The notes under the pieces are model-generated. The model was not told the origin of the DNA, ran no database searches, and saw only the letters and a program-made list of their open reading frames with translations. The position numbers and the translations under genes are program-made. Shown here piece after piece: positions 27,462 through 63,859 of a DNA stretch of 64,000 nucleotides (positions are counted from its first letter, which is position 1; each line of letters begins with the position of its first letter). The DNA comes from Bacteroidales bacterium (GTDB lineage: Bacteria; Bacteroidota; Bacteroidia; Bacteroidales; GCA-2711565): contig OY787449.1 in assembly GCA_963678785.1 (NCBI GenBank), positions 448,704 through 512,703 on the forward strand, read 5' to 3'.

Positions 27462-27597
27462 GTAGATCTAAAAAAGATGCGCAGCTGTTGATTAAAAATT
27501 TCATCCCCCAATTTAAAAATATAGATACGGAATATGTTCCATTCAGCCCAACATTTCATACACGTTCCGTTACCTGCAAGCAAACAAAATAAATACG

Positions 27598-28173
27598 ATG
27601 AATAAGAAAGTAAGAAATATTATAGACGAAGTTTTTCCAGTATCTGAAAAATCATTTCAGGAAATAGACAGTTTGCTGGAATATGAAACTTTCGAAAACG
27701 GAGAAACATTTATAGAAAGAAACAAACGAAACGAAAAGGAATATTTTATCCTAAGTGGGGTTTGTAAAAGCTATTTAGTAAATCCAGATGGAGATGAAAT
27801 TACTATATCACTATTCACAGAAAACAGCATCTTATCACCTCATCAAACAAGAACCCCTAACAATATTTCAAATCTAAATTTCAAGGCATTAACCAATTTA
27901 GAATTAGCTTCAATGAATGCCAAAGAATTTGAAAATTTAATGATTGAGAATATCGAAATAAGAAATTTTGCAAATACAGTTCTACAAAATGAACTTATGT
28001 TAAAAGTTGAAAAAGAAATAGGATTAGCATCTCTTACGGCAAAGGAAAGATTGATTGAATTTCGAAATAAATATAAAATTTTAGAAAACCTTATCCCACA
28101 CACAGATATTGCTTCATATTTAGGTATTACAAATATTTCATTAAGTAGATTACGAAAAGATTTGATGAGTTAA
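27598..28173 (+). CDS. Crp/Fnr family transcriptional regulator
   Basis: 191 aa with a cNMP-binding-like N-terminal barrel and a C-terminal HTH (HTDIASYLGITNISLSRLRKDL). Confidence 0.75.
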   Translation: MNKKVRNIIDEVFPVSEKSFQEIDSLLEYETFENGETFIERNKRNEKEYFILSGVCKSYLVNPDGDEITISLFTENSILSPHQTRTPNNISNLNFKALTNLELASMNAKEFENLMIENIEIRNFANTVLQNELMLKVEKEIGLASLTAKERLIEFRNKYKILENLIPHTDIASYLGITNISLSRLRKDLMS

Positions 28174-28246
28174 TTGCTTTTTATCAAATGTTAATGGAGA
28201 ACATTTTTAATCGCTCTAATTTTGTAAAGAATTTAAACGATTAAAA

Positions 28247-29686
28247 ATGAAAGAAATGAATATATCTATTAATAATTTGAAACCATTTTGGTTTTTACTG
28301 ATTGGAATAGCAACTACTTCTATGACCCATATGTCATTCGGTGTTGACTTCTTTGCGTGGTTTTCTATCGTTCCATTTTTGTTATATCTAAATAATACAA
28401 AAGGTTGGAAATCAAGATTACTTTTTACTATTGCTTTAATTATTGCGTGGTCAATTGTCGTTCTGAAAATTGTTACACCACCAATACCATATTTAATGAT
28501 TTTCCTTTTTTCTATTCCAATAAGTCTGTTCCATTTACCAGCTTATTTGATTTGGGATAAATTTAAAAACCATAAATGGTCAATACTCCTATTTCCGACA
28601 ATCCTGATAATAATGGAATGGGTACAATATACCTTTACACCTTTTGCAAGTTGGGGAGTTATGGCCTATTCACAATTGAATAGTATAAATATTATGCAAT
28701 TTGTTTCTGTATTTGGAATGGCAGGATTAAGTTTCCTAATCTATTGGGTAAATGTTTCAATTGCTCAATTAATTACAAGGAAAAAAGCAAATTTGTTATC
28801 ATTGTATATACCCCTTTCAATTCTAATTATTGTAATTATTTTTGGCTCACTGCGTATTAACATAGAAAAATCAAAAGGAGTTAAAACAATGACTGTTGCA
28901 ACAGTAGGAACAAATTCAACAGTTGGCGGTTTGCCTTTACCAACAAAAGAAAGTAACGATAAAGTAATATCTAAATTACTCAAAAAAACTGAAAAAGCTG
29001 GTGATTTTGGTGCTAAAATAATCGTTTGGAATGAAGCTTCATTTTATACACTTCCAAGTAATGAAAAAGATATCCAAGACTCAATAAAGACAATTGCAAA
29101 AAAGAAAAACACTTCAATCGTTGCATCTTATGTAGTACCTATCTCTGAAAATCCTTTTAAATATGAAAATAAGTATGTATTTATCAACGGAAAAGGAGAA
29201 ATCGTATATTCGTATCTAAAACATCAACCTGTTCCTGGAGAACCTGCCATTCAAGGAACAGAACCTTTTCAGACAGTTCAGATATCTGAAAGTAGAATTG
29301 GCGGAGCAATTTGCTACGATTATGATTTTCCGTATATCGCACAAGAATTTGGAAAATTAAAAGCAGATATTGTTGCCGTTCCATCATCAGATTGGCGTGG
29401 AATAGACCCATTACATACAAGAATGTCAGCTTTTAGAGCCATAGAGCAAGGACACTCAATAATCCGCTCAACCCGATTTGGACTTTCTGCAATCATTTCG
29501 CCATATGGAGAAATGATCAGTCAATCGAGCAGTTTTGACGACAACAATAAAGTAATGATAGCCAATATACAAGCAAAAGGAATTAATACGATATATTCAA
29601 TAATTGGAGATTTGTTTATTTATCTTTGTTTAGGATTTTTAATACTGTTTATTATAGACGTAATGATAAGAAAAACCAGTAGGTAA
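28247..29686 (+). CDS. apolipoprotein N-acyltransferase-like protein (multi-TM N-terminus plus carbon-nitrogen hydrolase domain)
   Basis: 479 aa: several TM helices, then CN-hydrolase motifs (IIVWNEASF; GGAICYDYDFP with the catalytic Cys). This is the Lnt-type architecture. The stop codon TAA lies inside the GTAAC box of repeat E2. Confidence 0.65.
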   Translation: MKEMNISINNLKPFWFLLIGIATTSMTHMSFGVDFFAWFSIVPFLLYLNNTKGWKSRLLFTIALIIAWSIVVLKIVTPPIPYLMIFLFSIPISLFHLPAYLIWDKFKNHKWSILLFPTILIIMEWVQYTFTPFASWGVMAYSQLNSINIMQFVSVFGMAGLSFLIYWVNVSIAQLITRKKANLLSLYIPLSILIIVIIFGSLRINIEKSKGVKTMTVATVGTNSTVGGLPLPTKESNDKVISKLLKKTEKAGDFGAKIIVWNEASFYTLPSNEKDIQDSIKTIAKKKNTSIVASYVVPISENPFKYENKYVFINGKGEIVYSYLKHQPVPGEPAIQGTEPFQTVQISESRIGGAICYDYDFPYIAQEFGKLKADIVAVPSSDWRGIDPLHTRMSAFRAIEQGHSIIRSTRFGLSAIISPYGEMISQSSSFDDNNKVMIANIQAKGINTIYSIIGDLFIYLCLGFLILFIIDVMIRKTSR

Positions 29687-29776
29687 CACTGTATAAAAAT
29701 AATAGCGGGTTTAGTGATAAATTAAAAGGGAAACACATCAAATCCGCTACTATTCTTATACGTGGCCGTTATGTGC
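29682..29776 (+). repeat. attC-like structured repeat, copy E2 (short centre)
   Basis: GGTAAC-act-GTATAAAAATAATAGC, a 38-nt centre, GCTACTATTCTTATAC-gtggc-CGTTATGTG. Both 16-nt arms are identical to E1, but the central part differs in length and sequence. Confidence 0.7.
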
Positions 29777-43524: not shown

Positions 43525-43877
43525 ATTCTCTATTTTTTTTAAGGCTACAAAATTAACAATTTGTAATGAATAATTGTTGATTTATAATAGGGTGTATTAA
43601 AATACCTCAAAGAGAACAGAAATTTTTAGGTTCCAATAGTCTGTCAAACAAAAAACCTATTAAAAAAATCTGACCTGATTTGATAAAAAAGCAATTTCTT
43701 ATAAATTTACATCGCAAAAGAATGGCATCTTTGAGATGATTTCCATCAGGTTAACAATCATAACCTTTATAAAAACAACCATGAGCTGTGATTCCTTAAG
43801 ATAAGGGGGGGTACTCAAAACAAATTAAGAACGCGAAAGCCGAAAAGCGCACAGAGTAGGCCCTAAAAAAACCAACT

Positions 43878-50439: not shown

Positions 50440-51882
50440 ATGTTGAATGACAAAAATTTCCTGAAGAAACTTCGCATCCGTAAATTCGATGCGCAAACCG
50501 AAAAAGAATTCAATAGCGATTACAATAAAAAATCTGTGACTGCAGTCCAGTTAACGCTCGGGCTGATCCTTTTCATTGGGATCATCCCTTATGCGGCACT
50601 CGATAAAATTATCATCCCCGAAACTTTCAGAATTGCATGGTTCATCCGTTTCGGTATTTGGACTCCTGTTATTTTAATTTCACTTTATTTATCATTTAAG
50701 CCTTTAATGATTAAGCACCTTCAACGGATAGCAATCATTGCAAATCTTACTTTATGTTATGGCGTACTGATCATGATTTTAATGACCGAAAAATCAGAAA
50801 TTGGCTTCACCAAATATTATGCGGGATTAACTGTGACTCTATCAACCATGATCATGCTAAGAATCAGATACAAAGCCGGAATATGGATTCTTTTTTCAGT
50901 CATCTTTTCCTATTTAATCATTGCTGTTTTTAAGCAAAAAATGCACCTTCCACATGAAAACCCAAATTTCCAGGCCATTCTGATTAATAACATCTATTTT
51001 TTATTCTCAGTAGCCCTGGCCATCGGAATTGCAGTATACATGTTAGAAATATATACCCGTTTCAATTTCTGGCACCGCAAGCAACTCATTAAAGAAAAAT
51101 ACCTGATTCAGGAAAAAACCGAACAAATAAAAAAACAGAACGAGCAGATTAGAATTCAGAGTCAGGAAGTGGCCGAGATATATCAAACCAAAAACAAATT
51201 ATTTTCGATAATTGCGCACGACTTAAAAAACCCCTTCAATTCAATCATCGGGTTTTCTGACCTTTTGTTGGAAAGTTGTGAGAACAATGATCAAAAAGCC
51301 GTAAAAAGATTCAGCCGAATCATCCGCGACACCTCCACCAATACCTTCGATCTTTTAAACAACCTCCTGGACTGGTCAAAAATACAAACCAACAAAATCA
51401 CCCTCAATCCACAGGAAATAAACATCAAGGATTTGGTAGATGAGATGGTGGAATACATGTATGATTTTGCAAAACAAAAAGGAATACTACTGCAAGCCGA
51501 AACTTTTGTAACGATAAACATTTGGGCCGATCTGACTATGATTCAAACTGTTTTGAGAAACCTGATCTCCAATGCAATAAAATATTCGAGCAAGGGAGAT
51601 GTCATAGAAATTAAGATAGCCAACTACAACCGTGAACTAAAAATAAGTGTGAGCGATACCGGATTAGGCATTCCGGACGAAGACAAAAAAAAACTTTTTA
51701 AAATCAGCGATAGCATTTCCAAACTGGGCACCAATAACGAAAAAGGCACGGGTTTAGGGCTGCTGCTTTGTCAAAATTTTATCAAACTTCATGAGGGTAA
51801 AATCTGGGTCGACAGTATCGAAGGCAAAGGATCCACTTTTAGCTTCACCCTCCCAAAAATTAAAAACCCAGATTCAAACTAA
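50440..51882 (+). CDS. membrane sensor histidine kinase
   Basis: 480 aa with a multi-TM N-terminus, a coiled coil, H-box AHDLKNPFNSIIGF, N-box LISNAIKYS, and G-boxes DTGLGIP and GTGLGL. Confidence 0.88.
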   Translation: MLNDKNFLKKLRIRKFDAQTEKEFNSDYNKKSVTAVQLTLGLILFIGIIPYAALDKIIIPETFRIAWFIRFGIWTPVILISLYLSFKPLMIKHLQRIAIIANLTLCYGVLIMILMTEKSEIGFTKYYAGLTVTLSTMIMLRIRYKAGIWILFSVIFSYLIIAVFKQKMHLPHENPNFQAILINNIYFLFSVALAIGIAVYMLEIYTRFNFWHRKQLIKEKYLIQEKTEQIKKQNEQIRIQSQEVAEIYQTKNKLFSIIAHDLKNPFNSIIGFSDLLLESCENNDQKAVKRFSRIIRDTSTNTFDLLNNLLDWSKIQTNKITLNPQEINIKDLVDEMVEYMYDFAKQKGILLQAETFVTINIWADLTMIQTVLRNLISNAIKYSSKGDVIEIKIANYNRELKISVSDTGLGIPDEDKKKLFKISDSISKLGTNNEKGTGLGLLLCQNFIKLHEGKIWVDSIEGKGSTFSFTLPKIKNPDSN

Positions 51883-52919
51883 CCCGCTACGGTTTGTTGT
51901 TCTGACAATTTCATGACCAGACTTTTGCGATATTTTTTAGCTCGTCTTAGATGGGTTTTGGCTTTAGCCGAAGGATTTTCCTTAAACATTTTCAGCTCAG
52001 TTTTACAATCAACCGAGCAGCAATCCTCATATTTCTTGGCACATTCGGGGCATTGCAAAAAGAGTAGATGGCAACTGTCGTTGGCACAATTTTTATGGGT
52101 ATCGAAAGGCGTTCCACATTGATGACAGCTCGAAATAATTTGTCCATCGATGCTTTCGCCCATTCGGGCATCAAACACAAAATTTTTACCGATAAATTTA
52201 GAATCCAAACCTGCTACTTTTATTTGACGGGCATATTCGAGTACGCCGCCATGCAATTGATTCACATCCTCAAAACCATGATGCTTTAAATAAGCGCTGG
52301 CTTTTTCGCAACGAATACCGCCCGTGCAATAAAGCAAAACCTTTTCATCTTTTTTGTCTTTCAACAAATCAACCACCATCTCCAGCTCATCCCTGAAGGT
52401 ATCGGCCTGTGGACAAATGGCGCCCTCAAAACGGCCAATTTCACTTTCGTATAAATTGCGCATATCTACCACTACCGTATCGTCTTTTTGCATCTGACGG
52501 TGAAACTCCAGTCCGCTCAGGTGATTGCCTACATTGGTCACATCAAAAGCTCCTTCGTCCAAACCATCGGCTACCAATTTGGGGCGGACTTTAATGGTGA
52601 GTTTATAAAATGATTTTCCATCATCTTCCACGGCAAACTTAATCGGGATGTCTTTTAAAATTTCAAATTGTTGGAGGCTGTCAAGAAACTTATCGAACTC
52701 GTGCTCAGGCACACTCATTTGGGCATTGATGCCTTCGCGGGCCACATATATGCGCCCAAAACAATTTAATTTAAACCATGCTTTGTAAATTTCATCCCGA
52801 AAAACCTGAGGTTCGTTTAAATAGAAGTAGCGGTAAAACGAAATCGTTTTTCGTTTAAAATCTTCTTTCATCAACTTCTTTTTCAGCTCCTCCCGATTTA
52901 CCTTATTGTATAATTGCAT
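51879..52919 (-). CDS. trhO: rhodanese-domain tRNA uridine(34) hydroxylase (UPF0176/YceA family)
   Basis: It has ISFYRYF, the rhodanese active-site loop YCTGGIRCEKA, and a C-terminal Cys-rich tail. I moved the start from 53039 to ATG 52919 (MQLYNKVNREELKK). Confidence 0.85.
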   Translation of the reverse strand: MQLYNKVNREELKKKLMKEDFKRKTISFYRYFYLNEPQVFRDEIYKAWFKLNCFGRIYVAREGINAQMSVPEHEFDKFLDSLQQFEILKDIPIKFAVEDDGKSFYKLTIKVRPKLVADGLDEGAFDVTNVGNHLSGLEFHRQMQKDDTVVVDMRNLYESEIGRFEGAICPQADTFRDELEMVVDLLKDKKDEKVLLYCTGGIRCEKASAYLKHHGFEDVNQLHGGVLEYARQIKVAGLDSKFIGKNFVFDARMGESIDGQIISSCHQCGTPFDTHKNCANDSCHLLFLQCPECAKKYEDCCSVDCKTELKMFKENPSAKAKTHLRRAKKYRKSLVMKLSEQQTVAG

Positions 52920-52950
52920 CTTATTTAAATTAATTCTTAATAGCGAGTGC

Positions 52951-53085
52951 AAATATAAATGTTTATTACAAACCTGCAAGTGTGCTTTATCTAAGGCCAT
53001 AAAGCAAACAACACATCTAATTTTCTTGTATATTAGCAATTGAAATTTGTGCCGCCTGCCCGCAGTTGTTGATTAAAGAATTTTA
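52951..53085 (+). repeat. 135-bp direct repeat, copy A (left boundary of islet; trhO upstream region)
   Basis: It aligns collinearly with 55746..55880, with about four-fifths of positions identical and two 1-nt indels (hand alignment). Long exact blocks include GGCCATAAAGCAAA and TTGTATATTAGCA. Confidence 0.75.
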
Positions 53086-53097
53086 GTTCCCCCTTTT

Positions 53098-53188
53098 GTT
53101 AAGAATCAATTCAATTTTAAAAGATTGATAAAAGATAGAATCCATAAAAACCTGCGCCCTATTCCTGATATGGAGGTTATGGTGCAAG
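53098..53188 (+). repeat. degenerate attC-like repeat, copy E5
   Basis: The right end CTATTCctgataTGGAGGTTATGGTGCAAG closely parallels the E2 right end CTATTCttatacGTGGCCGTTATGTGCAAC. The left arm (GATAAAAGATAGAATCC) is weak. Confidence 0.4.
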
Positions 53189-53331
53189 AATGGTGTACAT
53201 ATAAACGAGTTACCCACAAGCAAAAAAATGAGACAGAATGAAAAAGTTGGTACAAGAAAATAAGGAGACATTATTTAAGTGAGATTATTTTAATTAACAG
53301 AAAGTGTGAATTAAATTTGGTGATTTAACAA

Positions 53332-53664
53332 ATGGATATTACTTTTGCAAATAGAAAGTTAGAAAAGTACGGTAATAATTTTACCCTTGCACAAAGGAAA
53401 CTTGGCAATGATAGAGCAACAAAGTATCATCAAAGATTGGGCGATATGAGAGACATTGACAGTTTTGCCGAATTAGAAGCCTTACCTGGTAACTTTCATC
53501 CTTTGACTGCCAACAGAAATGGTCAATGGGCTTGTGACTTAGACCAGCCTTACAGACTTGTTTTTGAACCTGCTATTAAACCAGTTCCTTGCAATGAGCA
53601 TGGAACACCTATTTTGTCTGAAATGAAAGTAGTTGATATAATTGAAATAGTTGACTACCATTAA
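53332..53664 (+). CDS. higB: HigB-type (RelE/ParE superfamily, plasmid-maintenance killer) toxin
   Basis: 110 aa with LPGNFHPLTANRNGQWACDLDQPYRLVFE and the C-terminal VDYH typical of HigB_toxin. The toxin lies upstream of the antitoxin, as in higBA. Confidence 0.7.
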   Translation: MDITFANRKLEKYGNNFTLAQRKLGNDRATKYHQRLGDMRDIDSFAELEALPGNFHPLTANRNGQWACDLDQPYRLVFEPAIKPVPCNEHGTPILSEMKVVDIIEIVDYH

Positions 53665-53676
53665 AACACTTTTATT

Positions 53677-54771
53677 ATGCTTGCAAATCAATATAAACCA
53701 GACGTTGTTTTCCACCCTGCTACTACCTTAAACGAGAAGCTAGGCGAGATGGGAATGAGCATAAAAGAGTTTGCTCTTAGAACTGGAAAACCGGAACAAA
53801 CCATTATTGCTGTACTAAAAGAGGAAAGGTCGTTAACACCTGAAATGGCTATTCTATTTGAAAACGTTACTCAAATTCCTGCAAAATTCTGGATTAACAA
53901 ACAAGCAAGGTATAACGAATACGTAGCACGAAAAAAGCAGGGAGAAGCAATTAATGAAGCCATTGAATGGGCAAAGGAGTTTCCTTATCCACAAATGGCA
54001 AAATACAATTGGGTGCCGCCTACCCGAAGAATTGAAGAGAAAACCATAAATATGCTTAACTATTTTGGTGTTGCTTCGCATCATTCTTGGGAAGGTCTTT
54101 ATGTAGAAACCGATTTAAAAGTGGCGGCTTATACTTCTCTTAAACAAACGCATGAGCCACATGCCATTTCTGCATGGCTACGACAAGGCGAATTGCAAGC
54201 CAAACAAATTGATGCCCCCGAATATGATGCTAAAAAACTAAAACGTAATATTCCGAATATGCGAAAATTAATGGTTGAGCAACCTGTTGATTTTTTCGAG
54301 CAACTTCAAAACTTGTGTCTTGAGACAGGAATAGTTCTGTTATTCACCCCCAAATTACCTAAGGTGCCATTAAGTGGTTCAACCCGTTGGTTAAACAACA
54401 AACCATTAATTCAACTTACTGCACGCTATAAAAAGAATGATAGTTTTTGGTTTACTTTTTTTCATGAACTCGGACATATATTATTACACGGTAAAAAATA
54501 TATTTCTCTTGAAAATGTTGACTTTGAGGCTGCAGATCCTGTAAAAGAAGAAGAAGCCCACCAATTTGCCATTAAGCATACATTTACACAAGAACAAGAG
54601 AAAGAAGTACTGGAAAACGAAATTATAACCGAACAGGATATTATTGAATATGCTGAAAAATTCAATACACACCCTGCTATGATAATAGGACGATTGCAAT
54701 ATGATGGTCATATTCCCTACAATATAGGAAGACAATTTATGGAACCTATCGACTTAAACCCTGAGAACTAA
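53677..54771 (+). CDS. HigA-like XRE HTH fused to an ImmA/IrrE (M78, COG2856) zinc metallopeptidase domain
   Basis: 364 aa with an N-terminal HTH (MSIKEFALRTGKPEQTIIAVLKEERSLTPEMAILFENV) and a C-terminal HExxH (FFHELGHILLH). Confidence 0.75.
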   Translation: MLANQYKPDVVFHPATTLNEKLGEMGMSIKEFALRTGKPEQTIIAVLKEERSLTPEMAILFENVTQIPAKFWINKQARYNEYVARKKQGEAINEAIEWAKEFPYPQMAKYNWVPPTRRIEEKTINMLNYFGVASHHSWEGLYVETDLKVAAYTSLKQTHEPHAISAWLRQGELQAKQIDAPEYDAKKLKRNIPNMRKLMVEQPVDFFEQLQNLCLETGIVLLFTPKLPKVPLSGSTRWLNNKPLIQLTARYKKNDSFWFTFFHELGHILLHGKKYISLENVDFEAADPVKEEEAHQFAIKHTFTQEQEKEVLENEIITEQDIIEYAEKFNTHPAMIIGRLQYDGHIPYNIGRQFMEPIDLNPEN

Positions 54772-54876
54772 TTTGAGGATGACTTAATTGTAAGCATACC
54801 CGAATGACAAAAAAGAAGCAATGAAAGTCGAAGTGAATTTGAAACATAAAATGACTGAAAACAGAGAATGCCAGTG

Positions 54877-55010
54877 GGTAACAAAGTATAAAAATAATAG
54901 CCGAGATAGTAGTAAGTTCAAGTGTTGTAGCCCGCTTCAACTTTCTTGTAATTTGACAGGAAAGTGCCACGCAAATGCGCTACGCCACTTACAATTTATC
55001 GTTGTGCGGC
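54877..55010 (+). repeat. attC-like structured repeat, copy E3
   Basis: GGTAAC-aaa-GTATAAAAATAATAGC and the centre are 87/96 identical to E1. The right arm has diverged (GCGCTACGCCACTTACA...) and ends in CGTTGTGCGG. Confidence 0.7.
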
Positions 55011-55083
55011 AGCTTAATAAAGCCAGCAAAACAATTAAAATGAGCCTGGAAAGCTTAAAACCTCATTAAACCCCTTAAAGCAC

Positions 55084-55656
55084 ATGAAGGTGATTCAAAA
55101 ATTACTCCATATTGTTTTTTCATCTTTCTTAGTCTGGCAAACAATTATGTTGATTGAAAGACTGATAAATAACCCACCAACGGAATTTTTAAGCAGCTTA
55201 CAAGAAGCTGTGTTCGTGAATTTATTCGTAACAGGTATTTTTACCATTGTTTATTCCTTTCCGGTATATAAAATATTACCAACAGCTTACTATCAAATTA
55301 AAAAATCAGAAAGACTAAAATCCATTTTAAAAACCATTCGTATTGATTTATTCAAAAAACTATTAACCGCTACCATTTGGAAGAAGAATCAAAATAAAAA
55401 GTATTTCTTCACGGGCTCCAGAAACGGATTTGATCATCTTGAAATTGCGACGATGAAAAGTGAATTTGGTCATTTTGCCGGGTTCTGCATCGTGATGACT
55501 TTAACAATATTTATCGGAATAAGGACCAATTACATCATCGCTATCATGATTTTAATCGTCAATATAATTTTTAATTTTTATCCATTGATGTTACAAAGAT
55601 CTCACAGACTAAGATTGAATGAAATAAAGCATCGACCGGGCAAAAAATTGGGTTGA
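55084..55656 (+). CDS. small polytopic membrane protein, weakly CrtO-like (glycosyl-diaponeurosporenoate acyltransferase family)
   Basis: 190 aa with 4 predicted TM segments. The C-terminal NFYPLMLQRSHRLRL resembles the N.PII.QRYNRPRL motif of that family, recalled from memory only. Confidence 0.35.
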   Translation: MKVIQKLLHIVFSSFLVWQTIMLIERLINNPPTEFLSSLQEAVFVNLFVTGIFTIVYSFPVYKILPTAYYQIKKSERLKSILKTIRIDLFKKLLTATIWKKNQNKKYFFTGSRNGFDHLEIATMKSEFGHFAGFCIVMTLTIFIGIRTNYIIAIMILIVNIIFNFYPLMLQRSHRLRLNEIKHRPGKKLG

Positions 55657-55745
55657 TTACAAACATTGAAAAAAGGATAAAAGCCGATTGCACAACCAAA
55701 ACCTGTAACAGAGCTTGTGATTCGATTCATCATGGCATTGGGATG

Positions 55746-55880
55746 AAATATAAATAATTGTTGTGAACCTGCTAGCAAAGTTATTTACGGCCATAAAGCA
55801 AATAACATATCTGATTTTATTGTATATTAGCATATGAAATTCATGCCGTCTGCCTGAAGTTGTTATTGAAGAATTTCATA
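55746..55880 (+). repeat. 135-bp direct repeat, copy B (right boundary of islet)
   Basis: See copy A. This is an orphan duplicate of the trhO upstream sequence, and no gene reads out of it on the minus strand. Confidence 0.75.
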
Positions 55881-56056
55881 CTCCCAACCACATTTAAGAT
55901 AGATTCGATTTATACAATCGACTTGACATTTAAACAATTAAGAGTCGTTAAATGCACTATCATTTATGTGTTTTTGTGTGAGAATATAGTTAGAAGCTTT
56001 CACCTGATTGTAAAAGCTTGAAACATCATTTTAAGCTAATAAATCGTTATAGAAAT

Positions 56057-57058
56057 ATGGAAATTAAGAGAGGAAAATTATTGAATTCTTTAATAGGGTC
56101 AATTGTGTTCATGGCTATGCTTTTTTTGACTGCATGTAGTAAAGAAAAGAATGAAAACCCTTCAAAAACAATTGATTATAGTCTAGCTTCGAATTGGGCA
56201 TCGCTGCCAACTTCCATTGATAAAACGGTGGATGTTTTTTATGCTTATCCTACTATTTACTTTGATTCAGACCCACAAAACATGGATATCAATGAAGAGC
56301 AAAACCGTCAAGCTGTGATTGACAAGATGAATTCTCAAATGGGATTATATGCTCCTTATGCAAATATTTACACGCCATTTTACCGACAAATGTATCGCGA
56401 TGGTTTTAATGATTTGCCCGTTGACGAGGCCATTCTTTTATTAAATACAGCTTATGAAGATATAGCCAATGCTTTCAAATATTATATGGACAATCTGAAT
56501 AATGGACGACCGTTTATACTTATGGGACACAGTCAGGGTGCAGGAATAATGATCGATCTTCTTCGTAAAGAATTTGACAATGATTCCTATAAAAATAAAA
56601 TGATTGCGGCCTATACAACCGGAGTTTCTATTATGCCCCAAGATACCATTGATTATCCCTGGATAAAAATCGCAAAATCGTCAACAGACCTTGGGGTTGT
56701 TATTACATATAATACTTTAGATTCTGAACACGATCAATCATCTTCTTTCCAAGCCGGCACCTTATGTGTCAATCCCATTTTGTGGACAACAGATACGACC
56801 TATGCCCCAAAATCGAAAAATCTTGGTGCTGTTTGGACAGATAATGAAGGCAACATCAGTAAAGAAATACTGAATTTTACAGATTGTTATATCCGAGCTG
56901 ATGGTGCACTGGCTGTGACCATTCCAAATCCGGATGAATATTACGACGAAGACAGGCAACCTTATGGTGGCTATCACGACTATGATCAAATTTTCTTTTA
57001 TAGAAATTTACAGCAAAATATTGCGGATCGAATAGATGCCTATTTTAATAAAAATTAA
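56057..57058 (+). CDS. DUF3089-like alpha/beta hydrolase lipoprotein
   Basis: It has a lipobox (LTAC) and the nucleophile elbow GHSQGA. I moved the start from TTG 56018 to ATG 56057. Confidence 0.6.
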   Translation: MEIKRGKLLNSLIGSIVFMAMLFLTACSKEKNENPSKTIDYSLASNWASLPTSIDKTVDVFYAYPTIYFDSDPQNMDINEEQNRQAVIDKMNSQMGLYAPYANIYTPFYRQMYRDGFNDLPVDEAILLLNTAYEDIANAFKYYMDNLNNGRPFILMGHSQGAGIMIDLLRKEFDNDSYKNKMIAAYTTGVSIMPQDTIDYPWIKIAKSSTDLGVVITYNTLDSEHDQSSSFQAGTLCVNPILWTTDTTYAPKSKNLGAVWTDNEGNISKEILNFTDCYIRADGALAVTIPNPDEYYDEDRQPYGGYHDYDQIFFYRNLQQNIADRIDAYFNKN

Positions 57059-57213
57059 ATTATAAAAGCTAAAGTGACTATGCATGCGAAAAAGAACTTC
57101 AGCTTTTTTTAAGGGCTATTTCTTAAAGTGTGCAGCAAAATGATAAAAAGTATTTTAAATACCCAAAGTTTTATTCACCAACCATTAATCTTAACTTCAA
57201 GCCTTACTAGCAT

Positions 57214-59481
57214 ATGAAAAAAACAATATTGACCGTATTAATTTTGGCCTTCTCTGTGGTGGTCATAGCACACGATTATAAATTAGATCAACTCAAAATC
57301 ATTTCAAAAATATGGGGAGAGACCTATTTATTTCATCCCTCCATCATTCGATCTGATAAAAACATTGAATGGGAAAAGCAATTGGTTGATTTCCTGCCCA
57401 AGATGAAGGGTAACTTAAATCATGGTGACTTTGTTGAACTTATCAATTCTGATTTATTATCAACATTGGAAGATCCCTTTACTTTGGTGCAGAGTTGCGA
57501 AGAAAGGCAAACAAAATCAGTCGATTTGAAGTCTTCAGATGCTTTTGATTATATAAGAATCACCGAAGAACAACTCTCAGATATTGGAAGCTTAAATGAT
57601 CTGAGTTCAATCATTACTGATAGAAACCCGAATAAAGCACTGCTGGTAGATCTCAGAATAAACAAAGAACTTGAAATCGACCGGCATTCAAACACCTTAT
57701 TTGAATATTTTGCTTCCATGCTCATTCATGATGAAATCCCCGTGAGTACATCAATAATGAGAGAACATTATGGTTGGGATGAATACAATGATTGGTGGTT
57801 TTATGAGCAAAGATGGAAGCTGGCGACCCCTGACAAACAAATGAAGAACAGTGGAAAATTGATGCCACTAAAATCCTATTCACAGGAACTGTCTTCTTAT
57901 TTACCCCAAAATAATTTCAACAATTTTAAAGCCATTGAGCGCCCCATCTTTTTCATAACAAATAACAGCTTTCGTTCGTATTATAATTCAGAACTCCTTT
58001 CTTTGCAAACGAATCGAGCAAATACCTTTCTGATCAATGAGGATTCCGGGAAAATTTATTCCAACCAATCAAATCTAAAAAAATATCATTTTAAGGATTT
58101 CGAATTTGTTTTAAACACCGCTTTTAATCTCAATCATGGGCACAGTGATTTAAAATTTGCAGTCAATACAACTTCCTTAAATTTAAATAAAGTCGTTGAA
58201 TTGATCAATTCAAATCAATCCAATCAAATTACACCAAAAGACTTTTCATTCAATATTTCTCCTAAAAAATATCAATCTCAAAATAAATCATTGTCAGAGG
58301 AAGAAAAGATACTTGGCGTGATTAAAATCTGGACCATTGTTAAATATTTTTATCCACATCCCGAACTCATCTCAATGGATTGGGAAAATTCTTTAGGCAA
58401 ATTCCTGCAACTTGCACAAAACTCCTCTTCTGATAAAGAATACTACACCAACATTCAGGAAATAATGGCAAAGCTGAATGATTCACACGTATCGACTTTC
58501 CACTCCTCAATTCTCGATTTTTCCAAGATATTTGTTGCACCTGTTCAATTTGACTGGATTGAAAACAAAGTTATTATTACCGCAATTGACAGCTCGGTAA
58601 CTGCAAATATTAAAGTTGGTGATGAAATCACAGCAATCGATGATTTAATGATTGATGAGCTATTGGATAAAAATGCTAAAAAGATTTCTTCGAGTAATCG
58701 TCAGGGGCTTTTATCAACCGTAATTAATCCGGGATATTTCATCGGAGCATCCGGCAGCAATATTAAGTTTGATGTTAAAAGCAGGGGCCAACAGAAAATA
58801 GTTGAAATACCAAGATCGATGTACGTTTTTCAATTTATGGGATTTGGTGATAAGCGATCATCGAGCACAATTCTTGAAAACAAAATTGGCTACCTCAATT
58901 TGTCAACCCTGACCCAGACCAAGGATTTAGAAAACGAATTGCTTAAAATGGAAAACACCCGCGCCTTGATCATTGATTTACGCAGTTCTTATCCAACTGC
59001 CGATTATCAAAAGTTTTTGCAAATGCTTTGCCAAACAGAAGTTACAACAAGAAAAAGTGAAGTTCCCATCATTTCTGCATCAAAAGCTAAGGTTTGGCAG
59101 TATGAAGAAAACAGCATAAGTCCTGACCCTTCATTTTCATACAACAAACCCATTGCAGTCTTAATTGACAAAACCATGATTAGTCGTCCGGAAGATATTG
59201 CCATCGCTTTAAAATCTTTTCCTAATGTTCGTTTTGTAGGAGAACAAACCCAGGGAACAGATGGAGAAATGACGAAGATACACCTACCGGGAGGAGGAGA
59301 AACATCATTTACAGGACAGATTGTAAAATTTGGAAATGGCAATAAATTCCAAGGTATTGGAATCGTTCCGGACATTAAGGTAGAACGAACGATAGAAGGA
59401 CTAAAGAAAAATAAAGACGAGATCCTTGAAAAAGCCCTGGAAGAATTGAAAAAAACCAATCAAAATGTATGGGAAAAATAA
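57214..59481 (+). CDS. S41-family (tail-specific/C-terminal processing-like) peptidase with PDZ domain
   Basis: 755 aa with a signal peptide, a PDZ-like segment (IKVGDEITAIDD) and the S41 core (ALIIDLRSSYP ... ISRPEDIAIALK ... GIGIVPD). Confidence 0.7.
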   Translation: MKKTILTVLILAFSVVVIAHDYKLDQLKIISKIWGETYLFHPSIIRSDKNIEWEKQLVDFLPKMKGNLNHGDFVELINSDLLSTLEDPFTLVQSCEERQTKSVDLKSSDAFDYIRITEEQLSDIGSLNDLSSIITDRNPNKALLVDLRINKELEIDRHSNTLFEYFASMLIHDEIPVSTSIMREHYGWDEYNDWWFYEQRWKLATPDKQMKNSGKLMPLKSYSQELSSYLPQNNFNNFKAIERPIFFITNNSFRSYYNSELLSLQTNRANTFLINEDSGKIYSNQSNLKKYHFKDFEFVLNTAFNLNHGHSDLKFAVNTTSLNLNKVVELINSNQSNQITPKDFSFNISPKKYQSQNKSLSEEEKILGVIKIWTIVKYFYPHPELISMDWENSLGKFLQLAQNSSSDKEYYTNIQEIMAKLNDSHVSTFHSSILDFSKIFVAPVQFDWIENKVIITAIDSSVTANIKVGDEITAIDDLMIDELLDKNAKKISSSNRQGLLSTVINPGYFIGASGSNIKFDVKSRGQQKIVEIPRSMYVFQFMGFGDKRSSSTILENKIGYLNLSTLTQTKDLENELLKMENTRALIIDLRSSYPTADYQKFLQMLCQTEVTTRKSEVPIISASKAKVWQYEENSISPDPSFSYNKPIAVLIDKTMISRPEDIAIALKSFPNVRFVGEQTQGTDGEMTKIHLPGGGETSFTGQIVKFGNGNKFQGIGIVPDIKVERTIEGLKKNKDEILEKALEELKKTNQNVWEK

Positions 59482-59606
59482 AGGAAGAAAAAAATAAATA
59501 AAAAATTACAATCATCTAATTTAGGCAGATGCTTCATTCAGTTTTGCTTAATAACATTGAATGATTAATTTAGTAAAATCAATGAATAAAGAAACAAAAA
59601 AATAAG

Positions 59607-60200
59607 ATGAAAAAACTTTTGAAAACAATATTTGCTTGTATTCTGATTTCGGGCAGCATCAATGCGCAGAGCAATCTATTCAACGGAAAAAATTTAGATG
59701 GCTGGAAAATATATGGGACTGAAAAGTGGTATGTGGAAGATGGTTTGCTTGTTTGTGAAAGCGGTGATGATAAAGAATATGGATATCTGGGCACCGAAAA
59801 AAACTACAAAGATTTTATACTCACCCTAGAATTTAAACAAGATAAAAATGGCAACAGCGGGGTATTTATTCGTTCAACCGTTAATGGCACAAGGGTTAGT
59901 GGCTGGCAGGTGGAAGTTGCGCCCATGGGCCTGCATACAGGCGGAGTTTATGAATCATACGGACGCGGCTGGTTGATTAAACCGGATCCTGAAAAAGAAA
60001 AGGTTTTAAAAGAGGGTGAATGGAATAAAATGAAAATAAAGGTTAAAGGTAAAAAATTGACTTCATGGTTAAATGACACCCAAATGATATATATCGAAGA
60101 TGAAAAAATTGGTGAAGGCGTTGGTGGAATTGTTTTGCAAATTCACAGCGGTGGAGATGTGAGGGTAAGCTGGAGAAACATTAAAGTTGAGGAACTTTAA
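59607..60200 (+). CDS. DUF1080 (3-keto-disaccharide hydrolase-like) secreted protein
   Basis: 197 aa with LFNGKNLDGWK, NSGVFIR and a C-terminal FRNI-like WRNIKV. Confidence 0.75.
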   Translation: MKKLLKTIFACILISGSINAQSNLFNGKNLDGWKIYGTEKWYVEDGLLVCESGDDKEYGYLGTEKNYKDFILTLEFKQDKNGNSGVFIRSTVNGTRVSGWQVEVAPMGLHTGGVYESYGRGWLIKPDPEKEKVLKEGEWNKMKIKVKGKKLTSWLNDTQMIYIEDEKIGEGVGGIVLQIHSGGDVRVSWRNIKVEEL

Positions 60201-60210
60201 AAACATCCAG

Positions 60211-60567
60211 GTGATAAAAAAAACAGGCCAATTAATCGCGGATTATCCGGAATATATTTTAATAGCACTGGTGAGTTTTTATTGGGCTTCAACACTTTTA
60301 ATAAATCCCATCGCCATCGGCTTATTTTTCATCTTAATTCTTCAGATTATCTTTAAAAACAGAATCTCCGGTCTTATGATTGGAAGCTTATTTGTCTTTA
60401 TTAATCTATTTTTGGTCTTAGCCATTGGGTCTGAATTGTTTGAATTTCCGGAGTTTAATATGAATGCCAAGAAACTGCTGATTTATGGATTTTTAATATT
60501 GGTAATATGCTCGATGGCCACAGGATTAATGCTTTACAAACATCTTCTGAATGAAAGAAAAGACTGA
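60211..60567 (+). CDS. hypothetical small membrane protein
   Basis: It has three hydrophobic segments. Only TTG 60187 or GTG 60211 starts are available, so the start is uncertain. Confidence 0.35.
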   Translation: MIKKTGQLIADYPEYILIALVSFYWASTLLINPIAIGLFFILILQIIFKNRISGLMIGSLFVFINLFLVLAIGSELFEFPEFNMNAKKLLIYGFLILVICSMATGLMLYKHLLNERKD

Positions 60568-60620
60568 TAAAGTTGGACAATAATTGAATCAAAAACCCAT
60601 AAACCTTAAAATTTCAAAAA

Positions 60621-61133
60621 ATGAAAAACGCCTTTCTTCTCCTTGGTTTTATAATAGTTTTTTCAAGTTGTTCATCTAACAAAAATCCTGAATCGGGTTC
60701 AGGCATTTATACTTTGGACAAAGAGGCGCCCATCCAATCAATTGACGAATTAATAAAACAAATGCCGGGCAAAGCCATTTATATCGACAGATGGGCAAGT
60801 TGGTGTAATCCTTGCATTGAAGAATTTAAACACAGTGAGGATTTACACGATTTTTTGAAGGATCATGAAATTGAGATGGTTTACCTAAATTCGGATACCG
60901 AACTTGAGGAAGAGAAATGGCTTGATTTCATCAACGAAAATCAACTGGAGGGCAAGCATTTAAGACTGAATAGTGTTTTAAAAGCAGATTTGATCGATAA
61001 GGGTATCTTCATCCCAATGATCCCTCAATATATGATTGTAGGAAAAGATGGTAAAATAATTAACAATAAAGCTCTAAGGCCAAGTAGTGGTAATGATCTC
61101 TATAGGCAGCTTCAAGAAGCCCTAGACTTGTAA
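60621..61133 (+). CDS. thioredoxin-fold (TlpA-like) lipoprotein
   Basis: 170 aa with a lipobox (FSSC) and the active site WASWCNPC. Confidence 0.75.
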   Translation: MKNAFLLLGFIIVFSSCSSNKNPESGSGIYTLDKEAPIQSIDELIKQMPGKAIYIDRWASWCNPCIEEFKHSEDLHDFLKDHEIEMVYLNSDTELEEEKWLDFINENQLEGKHLRLNSVLKADLIDKGIFIPMIPQYMIVGKDGKIINNKALRPSSGNDLYRQLQEALDL

Positions 61134-61296
61134 GGCAGATGAATAGATCCATGAGAATAGAAAGGCAGATCAACCCCTTGGCACTCCTCACCCGGAGGTG
61201 TCAACCCTGTTAAAGTCATCGTTTCAAATATAGATTTTAAAAAAGCTCATAGAATTGTTAAAGTTTTTGAATCTAAATTCTAGGAATAAACAAAAA

Positions 61297-61321
61297 AACC
61301 GCCCTCAAAAAAAGGACGGTT
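61297..61321. terminator. bidirectional stem-loop terminator
   Basis: AACCGCCC / GGACGGTT (7 of 8 bp) with an A-rich loop. On the minus strand it is followed by a T-run, just past the stop of the 677-aa gene. Confidence 0.5.
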
Positions 61322-61345
61322 CTTACTTTTATGATTAAATGATCA

Positions 61346-63379
61346 TTATTTAATTAAACGGGTAACTTTGAAGTCCTTAAAACTAACTTCAGTCCAATCG
61401 CCATTATCATTGACCTCCCAATTTAACTCATATGATTTAGAAATTCCATAAGTATAAATACCTTTTTTAGCATTCCATTTTGAACCTTTAATGCTTTTTA
61501 GAAATTGGTTTCCTGACTGATTTTTACCTTTTCCCCAGCCCCAAAAAGACCAAGCGATCTTAATTGTATTAGGAAAGTTATCTTTATCTGAATCAGTGCT
61601 TGTCATATTCACTTTTGCACCACAAGCATCCCAACTATCATACTGAACATGGTACAAGCCCGATAAAGAGTAATTTTTAAAAACATCAGAATTAGGTAGG
61701 AAAGTAACATCCACATCCCCATCTAAATACCAATATTCTAGTCCTTTGCGTTCGATAGGCATATCAGTAACAGCATTTTTGAATTTACCCAAAATATAAT
61801 ATCCTTTAGGCGTAACTCCCATGGCTTTGTTAAAGCGAAGTTCTCTTAGGGCAAATGTAGAATTTCCAAGATGTCGGGTATAAGATCGGTCCCTGATGAC
61901 ATTTCCAAAATTGAAAGTACTTTTATATTTTCCTTTTCCTTTGGGTGTGGTAATGGTAACCGACTCAATTTTACCTTTTTTCATTTTGTAGGTATACTCC
62001 ATCATTAACTCATCCTTTTTATAAACACTTCCACTCACACTTTTAGCTTTGGTTTCCAGCTGGAAGGAAGGAATGATTGGAATCGGGAATGGAAGTTTGG
62101 CAGTACCGGAAACCAGGTTATTTGCCATAAAAGCATACAGAATTTCACCGTAAGTCTGGTCCAGAATTGCAGGCCAGTTTGGATTTTTATTAACCCCTTT
62201 GGCATAAAACTCCATAAAAGGATAACAGGCATTGTAAGCCTCTAATCTGTTCAAGTCTTTATTTCCGATGAAAGTTCCTTTTTCCATCACACCCGAAAAG
62301 AATTTTTGCATTTTATCAAGGGTGGGGTTGTGCAGTTTTTTAAGAGCAGTAACATGCTCCTTCGCTTTTTCGGCATTTAATAACCAGGCATAACCCATGG
62401 CTAAATTGTGATGAACTGCCCATTGCTGATCAGCAGGAACACTGGTTTTTAAACCATTCCAATACGAAACCAGCTCTTTCATTTCCTTGATTTCGCTTTT
62501 GTTCAATAAGGCTTCTTTTTTACCTTCAATCAGCTTTTCATATTTTTTGGCATAATCTTTTGAATCTTTGATTTCCTTAAAAGAATATACGCCCAGGGTT
62601 TCTTCAATTTTTTTAATACCATACATACCGTAAACAACGCGTTGAGCTTGTTCTAAAGCACCATCACGGCAAACATCATCATAAGGATGTGCATTTTCGC
62701 CTTCTTCGGTAACCTTAACCTCAAACATTTTACCTCCGCCTTCGGGCCATTCATTGCTGTGTCCAACACCTGAGATGATACCAAAATTGCGATCGGTAAT
62801 GAGTTTATTGCTGGCATTAAACACTTTTACATGTGCAAATACTTTATAAGGAACAGTATAAACGCCTTTGCTACTTTTATGTGGACTCATAGGGCGGGCA
62901 TTCTGGTAGGGGCAATAGGTAACAACCACTTTTAGGGCTCCTTTACCATTACTAAAATGAGGAGGGAATAAATCCCAGGTATCGTGAGGTACCGCTTTTG
63001 GTTTCATGGCTTCAGTTACTGCCTTTTTCATGGCCTCGCCCAATTTCATCCGGGCAATGGCCTTTCCCGTTTTAGTCTTTCTCTCTGATTCAGGCTTTTT
63101 ACCTCCAATTTTATCGCCTAACTTACCAGCCAGTTTGCCAAGGTTTACACCAAGTCCTTTCTTTTGAGCTTCTCCACCACCAATGGCACCTCCATGGCTA
63201 AGCGCATCATCATACATTACAAAAATTTTGGCCGTTTTATAATTGCTACTAAAGGCCGGAAGCTGGAAATATTCTACTTGTTTCGCCTTCTCGTATTTCT
63301 GGGCAGAAACTTCATTCCCAAAGCCTGCCAATAAGCATAAACTTACAAAAACAAATAGGCTGTTTTTAAAATTCATCAT
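61346..63379 (-). CDS. large secreted hypothetical protein
   Basis: 677-aa uninterrupted ORF with a signal peptide (GNEVSAQ) and a Lys/Gly-rich low-complexity segment near residues 70-130. No domain I recognise. Confidence 0.6.
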   Translation of the reverse strand: MMNFKNSLFVFVSLCLLAGFGNEVSAQKYEKAKQVEYFQLPAFSSNYKTAKIFVMYDDALSHGGAIGGGEAQKKGLGVNLGKLAGKLGDKIGGKKPESERKTKTGKAIARMKLGEAMKKAVTEAMKPKAVPHDTWDLFPPHFSNGKGALKVVVTYCPYQNARPMSPHKSSKGVYTVPYKVFAHVKVFNASNKLITDRNFGIISGVGHSNEWPEGGGKMFEVKVTEEGENAHPYDDVCRDGALEQAQRVVYGMYGIKKIEETLGVYSFKEIKDSKDYAKKYEKLIEGKKEALLNKSEIKEMKELVSYWNGLKTSVPADQQWAVHHNLAMGYAWLLNAEKAKEHVTALKKLHNPTLDKMQKFFSGVMEKGTFIGNKDLNRLEAYNACYPFMEFYAKGVNKNPNWPAILDQTYGEILYAFMANNLVSGTAKLPFPIPIIPSFQLETKAKSVSGSVYKKDELMMEYTYKMKKGKIESVTITTPKGKGKYKSTFNFGNVIRDRSYTRHLGNSTFALRELRFNKAMGVTPKGYYILGKFKNAVTDMPIERKGLEYWYLDGDVDVTFLPNSDVFKNYSLSGLYHVQYDSWDACGAKVNMTSTDSDKDNFPNTIKIAWSFWGWGKGKNQSGNQFLKSIKGSKWNAKKGIYTYGISKSYELNWEVNDNGDWTEVSFKDFKVTRLIK

Positions 63380-63859
63380 GGTTTAATTTTAATTGATATT
63401 AATTATTAATATTGATTTGGATGATTGACTCAGTTTGATTTTAGTATCGATAGCAAATACAGCAATTATCGTAAAGACTTATTAGCTTTTGGTTAACAAA
63501 ACTTTTAATCAACTTAGATTTATTTAACATGTAAATATATCCAGAATCCACATTATTATTGGCTTTCAGTGGGTGTGTTTTATAAACATTGCGAGTGGAA
63601 TTAACTTACAACTCCCTGTTTTCTATAAGCATTCATTGTTAATAAAATAACAGTACCGAATCGGAAGATTGATCAAATAAAATTTTAATCATTGGATGGA
63701 AGCAACGGTATTTTCAACCAATTTTCCAGGAAAACTGGATTTATTTAAAACATTTCTTTTTTAGAAAATCTATCTAAAAAGAGTCGAAAATTAAATAATC
63801 AGGCTGATAAAACATTGTAAATTGCACCTATACAATTTCATATTTTTTAAAACAAAAAA

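Follow-up and report, generated by a model that had tools for sequence, protein, structure and literature searches.

Upstream of trhO, the gene of a tRNA U34 hydroxylase, a 64-kb stretch of a Bacteroidales bacterium genome (the whole stretch analysed, hereafter the window) carries about 2.7 kb of DNA framed by two imperfect direct repeats of 135 bp, copy A beside trhO and copy B at the far end. The comparisons presented here indicate that the 2.7 kb between the copies were acquired in at least two steps, one of them apparently the entry of a clear integron-type gene cassette (cassette 1), so that the interior is not one mobile element. An earlier reading of the sequence alone (the sequence-only reading) had taken the 2.7 kb for a single islet left by a site-specific integrative element, with the repeats as its left and right attachment sites (attL/attR). 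Neither part of this proposal was borne out: the boundaries of cassette 1 are its own, and at other loci it is accompanied by neither the repeat, nor the spacer that precedes it here (X1), nor the CrtO-like gene that follows it here, and no switch of affinity was seen along the repeat when a close relative, L003, served as outgroup. The repeat pair is therefore not a demonstrated attachment (att) pair. The explanation that we favour, and to which we give about an even chance, is that foreign DNA has accumulated stepwise at a variable, lineage-specific spot upstream of trhO, with the repeat as a by-product scar. The features concerned are as follows.

51879–52919, minus strand: trhO (tRNA U34 hydroxylase, UPF0176/rhodanese), ATG at 52919; Pfam UPF0176_N, Rhodanese and Rhodanese_C
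52950–52980, minus strand: trhO promoter as read from the sequence, with -7 box TATATTTG at 52950–52957, -33 box CTTG at 52977–52980 and a 19-nt spacer
52951–53085 (weak extension to 53117), no strand: repeat copy A, the native trhO upstream module by alignment and orthology with L003
53086–53208, no strand: spacer X1 (the 'E5' of the sequence-only reading), unique sequence, not attC
53209–55009, plus strand: integron-type gene cassette 1, G|TT core GTTACCCAC at 53209–53217, cassette proper 53210–55001, placed by boundary complementarity and by where homology starts
53332–53664, plus strand: HigB-like 110-aa gene, always paired with the HTH-ImmA gene and named from its sources
53677–54771, plus strand: HTH-ImmA gene (HigA-like N-terminus and M78 peptidase); Pfam HTH_3 and Peptidase_M78
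54872–55009, plus strand: attC site E3, R'' box GTGGGTAAC at 54874–54882, R' box GTTGTGCGG at 55001–55009, 3' arm partly decayed; covariance model 109.2 bits, E 7e-24
55084–55656, plus strand: CrtO-family small membrane acyltransferase-like gene; Pfam PF18927, 1.5e-20
55690–55766, plus strand: tentative degenerate attC site of a putative second cassette (55002–55766), from a 7-mer match
55746–55880 (weak extension to 55911), no strand: repeat copy B, an orphan decayed copy by alignment and three-way site comparison
56057–57058, plus strand: DUF3089 gene, the first to the right of copy B (176 nt downstream); Pfam PF11288, 4.6e-48

Cassette 1 and the attC family

Cassette 1 ends in E3, one of a set of sequences that the sequence-only reading had described as attC-like. 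These E elements are integron-type attC sites about 137 nt long; their arms covary, and their AAC...GTT ends are invariant. A seven-sequence alignment, from which the covariance model was built, gives a consensus hairpin with 23 pairs, and compensatory changes occur in 16 of these; across the 14 distinct copies of the family 88.5% of the cells are paired and 17 of the 23 pairs are compensated, which none of 500 shuffles reached, and attC structures slid by a few columns show 27–37% pairing. The sites located by the model in the window, where they are solitary and lie among housekeeping genes, and in three other loci were:

Window, three sites: 1889–2024 (135 bits), 29677–29776 (83 bits) and 54872–55009 (109 bits)
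L010, seven sites: L010 1753–16783, all on one strand
L012, five sites
L014, two sites

The left end of cassette 1 follows from a boundary rule evident in L010, where six consecutive cassettes start, behind the G|TT of the attC that comes before each, with the 9/9 reverse complement of their own R'' box, five different 9-mers being used. Across the window as a whole, 162 pairs of GTT.../...AAC 9-mers were observed against a shuffle mean of 132, and since chance pairs are as common, the rule is informative only if anchored on an attC site recognized by the covariance model. Anchored on E3 it leads to position 53209, 124 nt inward of the left repeat: the 9-mer GTTACCCAC found there is the exact reverse complement (9/9) of the R'' box of E3, and the boundary 9-mer and its R'' complement are found nowhere else in the window. 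Homology to L010, L015 and L016 begins exactly at the same nucleotide. The homologous boundary sites of L010 read GTTAGGCAC and GTGCCTAAC, a compensatory change, and the cassette of L016 starts with GTTAGGCACAAGC after an unrelated flank. L015, a locus of another metagenome, matches the window at 92% identity over precisely 53209–54856 and is unrelated to it on either side, and the left flanks of the cassette in the window, L015 and L016 share no similarity with one another. Neither the repeat nor X1 nor the CrtO-like gene is present at the cassette loci of L010, L015 and L016. Given the boundary rule and the unrelated flanks, cassette 1 is best delimited as 53210–55001, inserted at a G|TT in otherwise unique sequence, and as far as sequence comparison can tell its boundaries are exact and its mobility independent of the surrounding DNA.

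Three pieces of cassette 1 are found dispersed along L010:

Window 53209–53262, matching L010 5240–5294, upstream of hsdM
Window 53284–54798, matching L010 7607–9119, the gene pair
Window 54817–54886, matching L010 13552–13621, after hsdR

From the position of these pieces, L010 holds the homologous cassette with a full type I restriction-modification operon inside it. The L010 cassette, which also occurs in L011, L012 and L016, measures about 8.5 kb (L010 5241–13745) and contains hsdM, the HigB-like gene, the HTH-ImmA gene, hsdS and hsdR; the cassette of the window and of L015 is a version that lacks the restriction-modification genes, its junctions being 53262/53284 and 54798/54817. The HigB-like/HTH-ImmA pair is often found inside type I restriction-modification operons. 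The 110-aa gene precedes the HTH-ImmA gene in all loci compared, and in the source records members of its protein cluster go by 'toxin HigB-1' or 'proteic killer suppression protein'; the protein itself had no sequence match in Pfam, NCBIfam, PADLOC or the Protein Data Bank (PDB). Its partner matches PD-Lambda-2_B of PADLOC (2.2e-31) and, below the cut-off, the HigA family TIGR02607. It has more than 100 homologues at 72–95% identity, mostly on short contigs, and is conserved far better across genomes than TrhO. The pair thus resembles HigBA and PD-Lambda-2 systems in its HTH-ImmA protein and in the source name of the small upstream gene, but differs from them in that the 110-aa partner lacks a family or structure match; toxicity and a role in defence are predicted.

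In several respects cassette 1 is like the integron cassettes found outside an integron platform, whether in clusters of attC sites lacking integron integrases (CALIN) or at single attC sites. E3 is an imperfect palindrome, about 137 nt long, whose arms covary and whose AAC...GTT ends are invariant. The cassette opens with bases that pair with R'' of that attC, it recurs at sites unrelated to one another, and its cargo is of the toxin-antitoxin or defence type common in chromosomal integrons. Unlike an integron, the 64-kb window has no integrase gene intI, attI site or Pc promoter, and an integron cassette accounts for 53209–55009 only, leaving the 135-bp repeat unaccounted for. Off-target insertion has been proposed for attC sites without an integrase (PMC8618304).

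Most of the interior as listed by the sequence-only reading stood, namely the HigB-like gene, the HTH-ImmA gene, E3 and the CrtO-family gene; 'E5' did not. The spacer X1, to which that name had been given, showed no similarity to the E family and no match in any locus compared, its fold z-scores are -0.29 and +0.38, and 53060–53225 scores below 5 bits with the covariance model. E5 was rejected as an attC site on these grounds, and the core at the left boundary of cassette 1, an inverse of the E3 5' end, is probably what had been taken for it. X1 was likewise rejected as a shared attI-like platform, since it has no similarity to the sequence left of this cassette in L015 and L016. As E5 is not attC, the two-cassette mini-array also proposed for the islet reduces to one solid cassette and one tentative one.

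The tentative cassette would surround the CrtO-like gene, a singleton at 90% clustering for which no relative was found in the JGI metagenomes. Its basis is a GTTGTGC at 55001–55007, the complement GCACAAC at 55690–55696, 34 nt past the stop codon of the CrtO-like gene, and a GTTGTGA at 55760–55766, which together give the order R' - R'' - R'. The complementarity between 55001 and 55690 is 7/9, compared with 9/9 in the cassettes of the E family, and a rough estimate puts its chance occurrence at about 0.01. The putative second attC scores below 5 bits with the covariance model and has a fold z-score of +1.2; its hairpin was rejected, 709 of 2000 shuffles being as good, and no attC structure was found between the 55690 and 55760 motifs. 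Nor is there an R'' box matching GTTGTGAAC downstream of copy B. We regard a second cassette here as a possibility that the sequence leaves on the doubtful side.

The interest of the E elements lies in their being integron-type attC sites in a Bacteroidales-like genome, with related metagenomic contigs that bear arrays of at least seven cassettes; one cassette of a related array holds a complete type I restriction-modification operon. With IntegronFinder 2.0, very few integrons were found in the phylum to which this Bacteroidales host belongs (PMC9024848). Since few are catalogued there, the E family offers a covariance model and a boundary rule with which more can be found, and with which one can ask which integrase serves them.

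The two copies of the trhO upstream region

The sequence-only reading had described the repeats as 135 bp long and about four-fifths identical with two 1-nt indels, and alignment agrees with it. BLASTN of the region against the window pairs 52951–53083 with 55746–55876 at 78.9% identity over 133 columns (E 8.3e-25), and in the MAFFT alignment of the copies 104 columns are invariant and there are two 1-nt gaps. Local alignment continues the similarity weakly to 53117/55911, past which pairwise comparisons of the right flanks of A, B and L003 give chance-level scores, as does X1 when set against either the trhO 5' region or the left flank of copy B. Conservation is highest in a 24-mer and a 22-mer, of which the window contains exactly two occurrences each (expected 0.00 and 0.03), and blocks of 14 and 13 nt are identical in the MAFFT alignment. 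An 84-nt core (52987–53070) is 85% identical between the copies, compared with about 67% for the promoter part. The 135-mer has two copies within the window, and the fetched loci otherwise show none except for the ortholog in L003; its 24-mer core had no match in the JGI metagenomes or in IMG/VR. There is no step in G+C content at the repeat edges, and a search of the window for tRNA genes, as possible integration targets, found none. The repeat has no Rfam match at gathering or permissive thresholds, and folding of both strands of both copies gave z-scores of -1.15 to +0.35, not above shuffled sequence; an RNA element or riboswitch was rejected for want of a relevant Rfam match or fold signal.

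Copy A has every appearance of the native, orthologous upstream region of trhO with a predicted working promoter, as the sequence-only reading had proposed. The closest relative found is L003, a 3.97-Mb contig, ctg97503c of ERZ21831104 in the European Nucleotide Archive (ENA), whose TrhO is 90% identical; the window protein is 90% identical to P0001 and 78% identical to P0002. The gene order GSDH - cytochrome c - histidine kinase - trhO is common to the window and L003, and their nucleotide homology is unbroken from 50452 to 53034 (BLASTN). At sensitive settings it runs from trhO through 53034–53056, with L003 10002–9894 matching the first 106 nt of copy A at 71%. The -7 box TATATTTG lies on the minus strand at 52950–52957, where the sequence-only reading had placed it, and the promoter of copy A reads CTTG-N19-TATATTTG, the aligned position of L003, directly upstream of its own trhO, being TTTG-N19-TATATTTG. 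The consensus for Bacteroidota promoters is TTTG / TAnnTTTG. Just upstream of the -33 box, copy A contains an 8-bp palindrome, TGCTTTAT (52983–52990), N8 and ATAAAGCA (52999–53006), kept in L003 as GCTTTT-N6-AAAAGC, the left arm of which is gone from copy B; 52983–53006 is a candidate operator for trhO. A scan of genome contigs with TrhO yielded two distant relatives. In L001 (TrhO 78%) the -7 box and the 5' untranslated region (UTR) are kept and nothing more; L001 and L002 (TrhO 73%) were rejected as empty-site comparators, being so distant that they keep the promoter and 5' UTR only.

Copy B is best read as a paralogous copy that has lost its gene and is decaying, and its description as an orphan in the sequence-only reading agrees with what we found: no gene reads out of it, and its boxes have become CTAG-N19-TATATTTC (-7 at 55745–55752, -33 at 55772–55775), with the G absent from both. 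When A, B and L003 are compared, the G of both promoter boxes and one arm of the palindrome are lost in B only. Copy B by itself has no detectable match to L003. Over 52951–53085, copy A agrees with L003 and B differs at 18 sites, B agrees with L003 and A differs at 7, and the two copies agree and L003 differs at 32; the 18-versus-7 split has a binomial p of 0.043. This pattern makes A and B sister copies that separated after the split from L003, with B on the longer branch. The A-type (18) and B-type (7) sites are mixed over the whole 135 nt, in small numbers that give low power, and since they are interspersed along the repeat there is no chimera of the attL/attR type.

The sequence-only reading had expected an empty site in relatives, with trhO directly followed by one copy of the repeat and the DUF3089 gene. 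In L003 the islet is indeed absent and the repeat has a single copy, but the right flank is unrelated, about 630 bp separating trhO from a conserved 677-aa gene and holding an unrelated 132-aa gene. The arrangement of trhO, one copy and DUF3089 was not found among the relatives and loci compared. At the same place the window has 8.3 kb (53035–61340), all missing from L003, in which X1 is followed by the HigB-like and HTH-ImmA genes, E3, the CrtO-like gene, copy B, DUF3089, an S41 peptidase gene, a DUF1080-type gene, a 126-aa open reading frame (ORF) and a thioredoxin-like gene.

Origin of the duplication

According to the explanation that we favour, an old join that was not site-specific would first have given rise to another copy of the module, on the right-hand side of the CrtO-like segment. 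Its source may have been a duplication in situ or the DNA of a related donor with its own copy of the module, in which case homology would have anchored one side and an illegitimate join would have closed the other. Later, the HigB-like/HTH-ImmA/E3 cassette would have entered at an off-target G|TT that lay between X1 and the CrtO-like gene, a step that would need an integron integrase encoded elsewhere in the genome. The sequence of these events is our inference, as are the illegitimate join and an integrase acting in trans; that the cassette came after the duplication is suggested by its 92% identity to L015, compared with 79% between the repeats, and holds only if the repeats diverged in place. 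Homology-facilitated illegitimate recombination and segmental duplication at transfer hot spots leave a resident and an incoming copy of the flank, with arbitrary edges and no recombinase. The two-copy pattern seen here matches, in one genome, and no donor with a trhO-DUF3089 arrangement was found.

Several points weigh against this explanation. The mechanism that made the duplication is itself a step that we infer, and the comparison has a single close relative, L003, behind it. The copy count of the 135-mer covers the 64-kb window out of a source genome of 4.1 Mb. The contrast between the core (85%) and the promoter part (about 67%) conflicts with uniform neutral decay, and the GTTGTGA that lies 14 nt inside copy B, with its complement 64 nt upstream, may hint at an integrase-type crossover at the edge of the repeat.

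The proposal of the sequence-only reading, in which the 2.7 kb are a site-specific element that brought its own trhO-upstream att region and whose recombinase was lost or acts in trans, appears unlikely to us. Islands with attL/attR direct repeats are known from tyrosine-recombinase islands at tRNA genes and from the NBU-type elements of Bacteroides. As in these, direct repeats flank DNA missing from a relative that has a single copy, and one of the repeats is native; the identical 14- and 13-nt blocks could be a crossover core, and the closer resemblance of A and B to each other than to L003 would fit an element from a close donor. Unlike them, the repeat is long (135 nt) and 79% identical where a short exact core would be expected, the target is a promoter instead of a gene 3' end, the interior is composite, with cassette 1 moving alone between different boundaries, and the repeat has no chimeric pattern. 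Since affinity does not switch along the repeat, any att crossover would have to sit at an extreme end. The remark in the sequence-only reading that no recombinase is present was supported, Pfam having revealed no recombinase, integrase or transposase domain in ORFs of at least 100 aa across the 64-kb window, which weighs against an element of this kind. So do the failure to observe the predicted empty site and the searches in which neither the islet nor the CrtO-like gene turned up a second time. That a direct repeat is long and diverged and frames foreign genes does not by itself make it an att pair.

We consider it quite unlikely that an integron integrase made the duplication, a multi-cassette circle having captured the module at a secondary G|TT and re-inserted beside the resident module, so that the islet would be a two-cassette array in which the R' site of the second cassette marks the start of copy B. 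In favour of this, cassette 1 is a genuine cassette, the GTTGTGC in the R' box of E3 (55001) is complementary to the GCACAAC 34 nt after the CrtO-like stop, a third GTTGTG at 55760 is no more than 14 nt from where copy B begins on the left, and off-target cassette insertion by a distant IntI has been published as a way in which attC clusters lacking an integrase can form (PMC8618304). These points are offset by the putative second attC, which stays below 5 bits and forms no significant hairpin, by a 7/9 match where the true cassettes of the family show 9/9, by A/B homology that reaches leftward past the proposed G|TT by 14 nt, by the 124 nt between the right end of copy A and the start of cassette 1, and by the lack of an R'' box complementary to GTTGTGAAC downstream. 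A related conjecture, that the trhO-upstream module is a landing pad for a trans-acting integron integrase in a Bacteroidales genome, a cassette circle having captured it at a secondary G|TT and re-inserted the copy, is in our view a long shot; if true, integron recombination would pick up and duplicate chromosomal promoter fragments, and the locus would display a visible step in the gain of a promoter by a cassette or in the birth of a cassette.

A functional duplication, the 84-nt core serving as a regulatory module, namely as operator or divergent promoter and having been copied to control DUF3089 as well, would account for the better conservation of the core (85%) than of the promoter part (about 67%), for the conservation of TTGTATATT in A, B and L003 and for the position of copy B 176 nt upstream of DUF3089. 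We find it very improbable, the palindrome being kept in A and L003 and broken in B, and the core itself being poorly kept between A and L003, with 20 of about 72 sites at which the two copies agree and L003 differs; moreover, no consensus rightward promoter can be read, and neither RNA structure nor an Rfam match was detected. Least probable of all would be two members of a dispersed repeat family, similar to miniature inverted-repeat transposable elements (MITE) or repetitive extragenic palindromes (REP), flanking these genes by chance. The 64 kb hold two copies and the other fetched loci none save the L003 ortholog, the 24-mer core is absent from the JGI metagenomes and IMG/VR, terminal inverted repeats are lacking, and copy A is positionally orthologous to a single-copy region of L003. 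Under the favoured explanation of stepwise accumulation, the repeat alone would be a modest genomic scar, and its value that of a dated marker of gene accretion, step by step, beside a housekeeping promoter.

Neighbouring genes and other candidate cassettes

The DUF3089 gene to the right of copy B has homologues (L004-L009) that are single genes in unrelated contexts at 62–82% identity, one of which, 71% identical, lies in a record named Desulfocicer vacuolatum. In all six loci nucleotide homology is confined to the coding sequence and ends at the stop codon, so that copy B does not co-travel with DUF3089 in the loci examined; the idea that copy B arrived with this gene was rejected on the same ground. 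The gene looks horizontally mobile, and no attC adjoins it.

Further to the right, comparison of 59597–63670 with L003 6118–9290 shows the DUF1080-type (3-keto-disaccharide hydrolase) and 677-aa genes swapped in order with their orientations kept, and the L003 genes between this pair and the next shared gene are missing from the window. At 43830–43862, upstream of an outer-membrane beta-barrel gene, a DUF805b RNA (36.8 bits) is the sole Rfam match of the window above the gathering threshold.

The two remaining attC sites of the window may also close cassettes. At 258–266, GTTACAGGG is the exact complement of the R'' box of E1 (1891–1899), which suggests a cassette of about 1.76 kb at 258–2024 with alpha/beta-hydrolase and methyltransferase genes; a ParE toxin gene (2315–2620) comes directly after E1. 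E2, in the region 27569–29776, overlaps the 3' end of an Lnt-like gene (CN_hydrolase and LNT_N), and an 8/9 boundary match, GTTACCTGC, is found at 27569, upstream of a gene for a cNMP-binding regulator. If the E2 cassette is real, it carries a gene usually counted as housekeeping.

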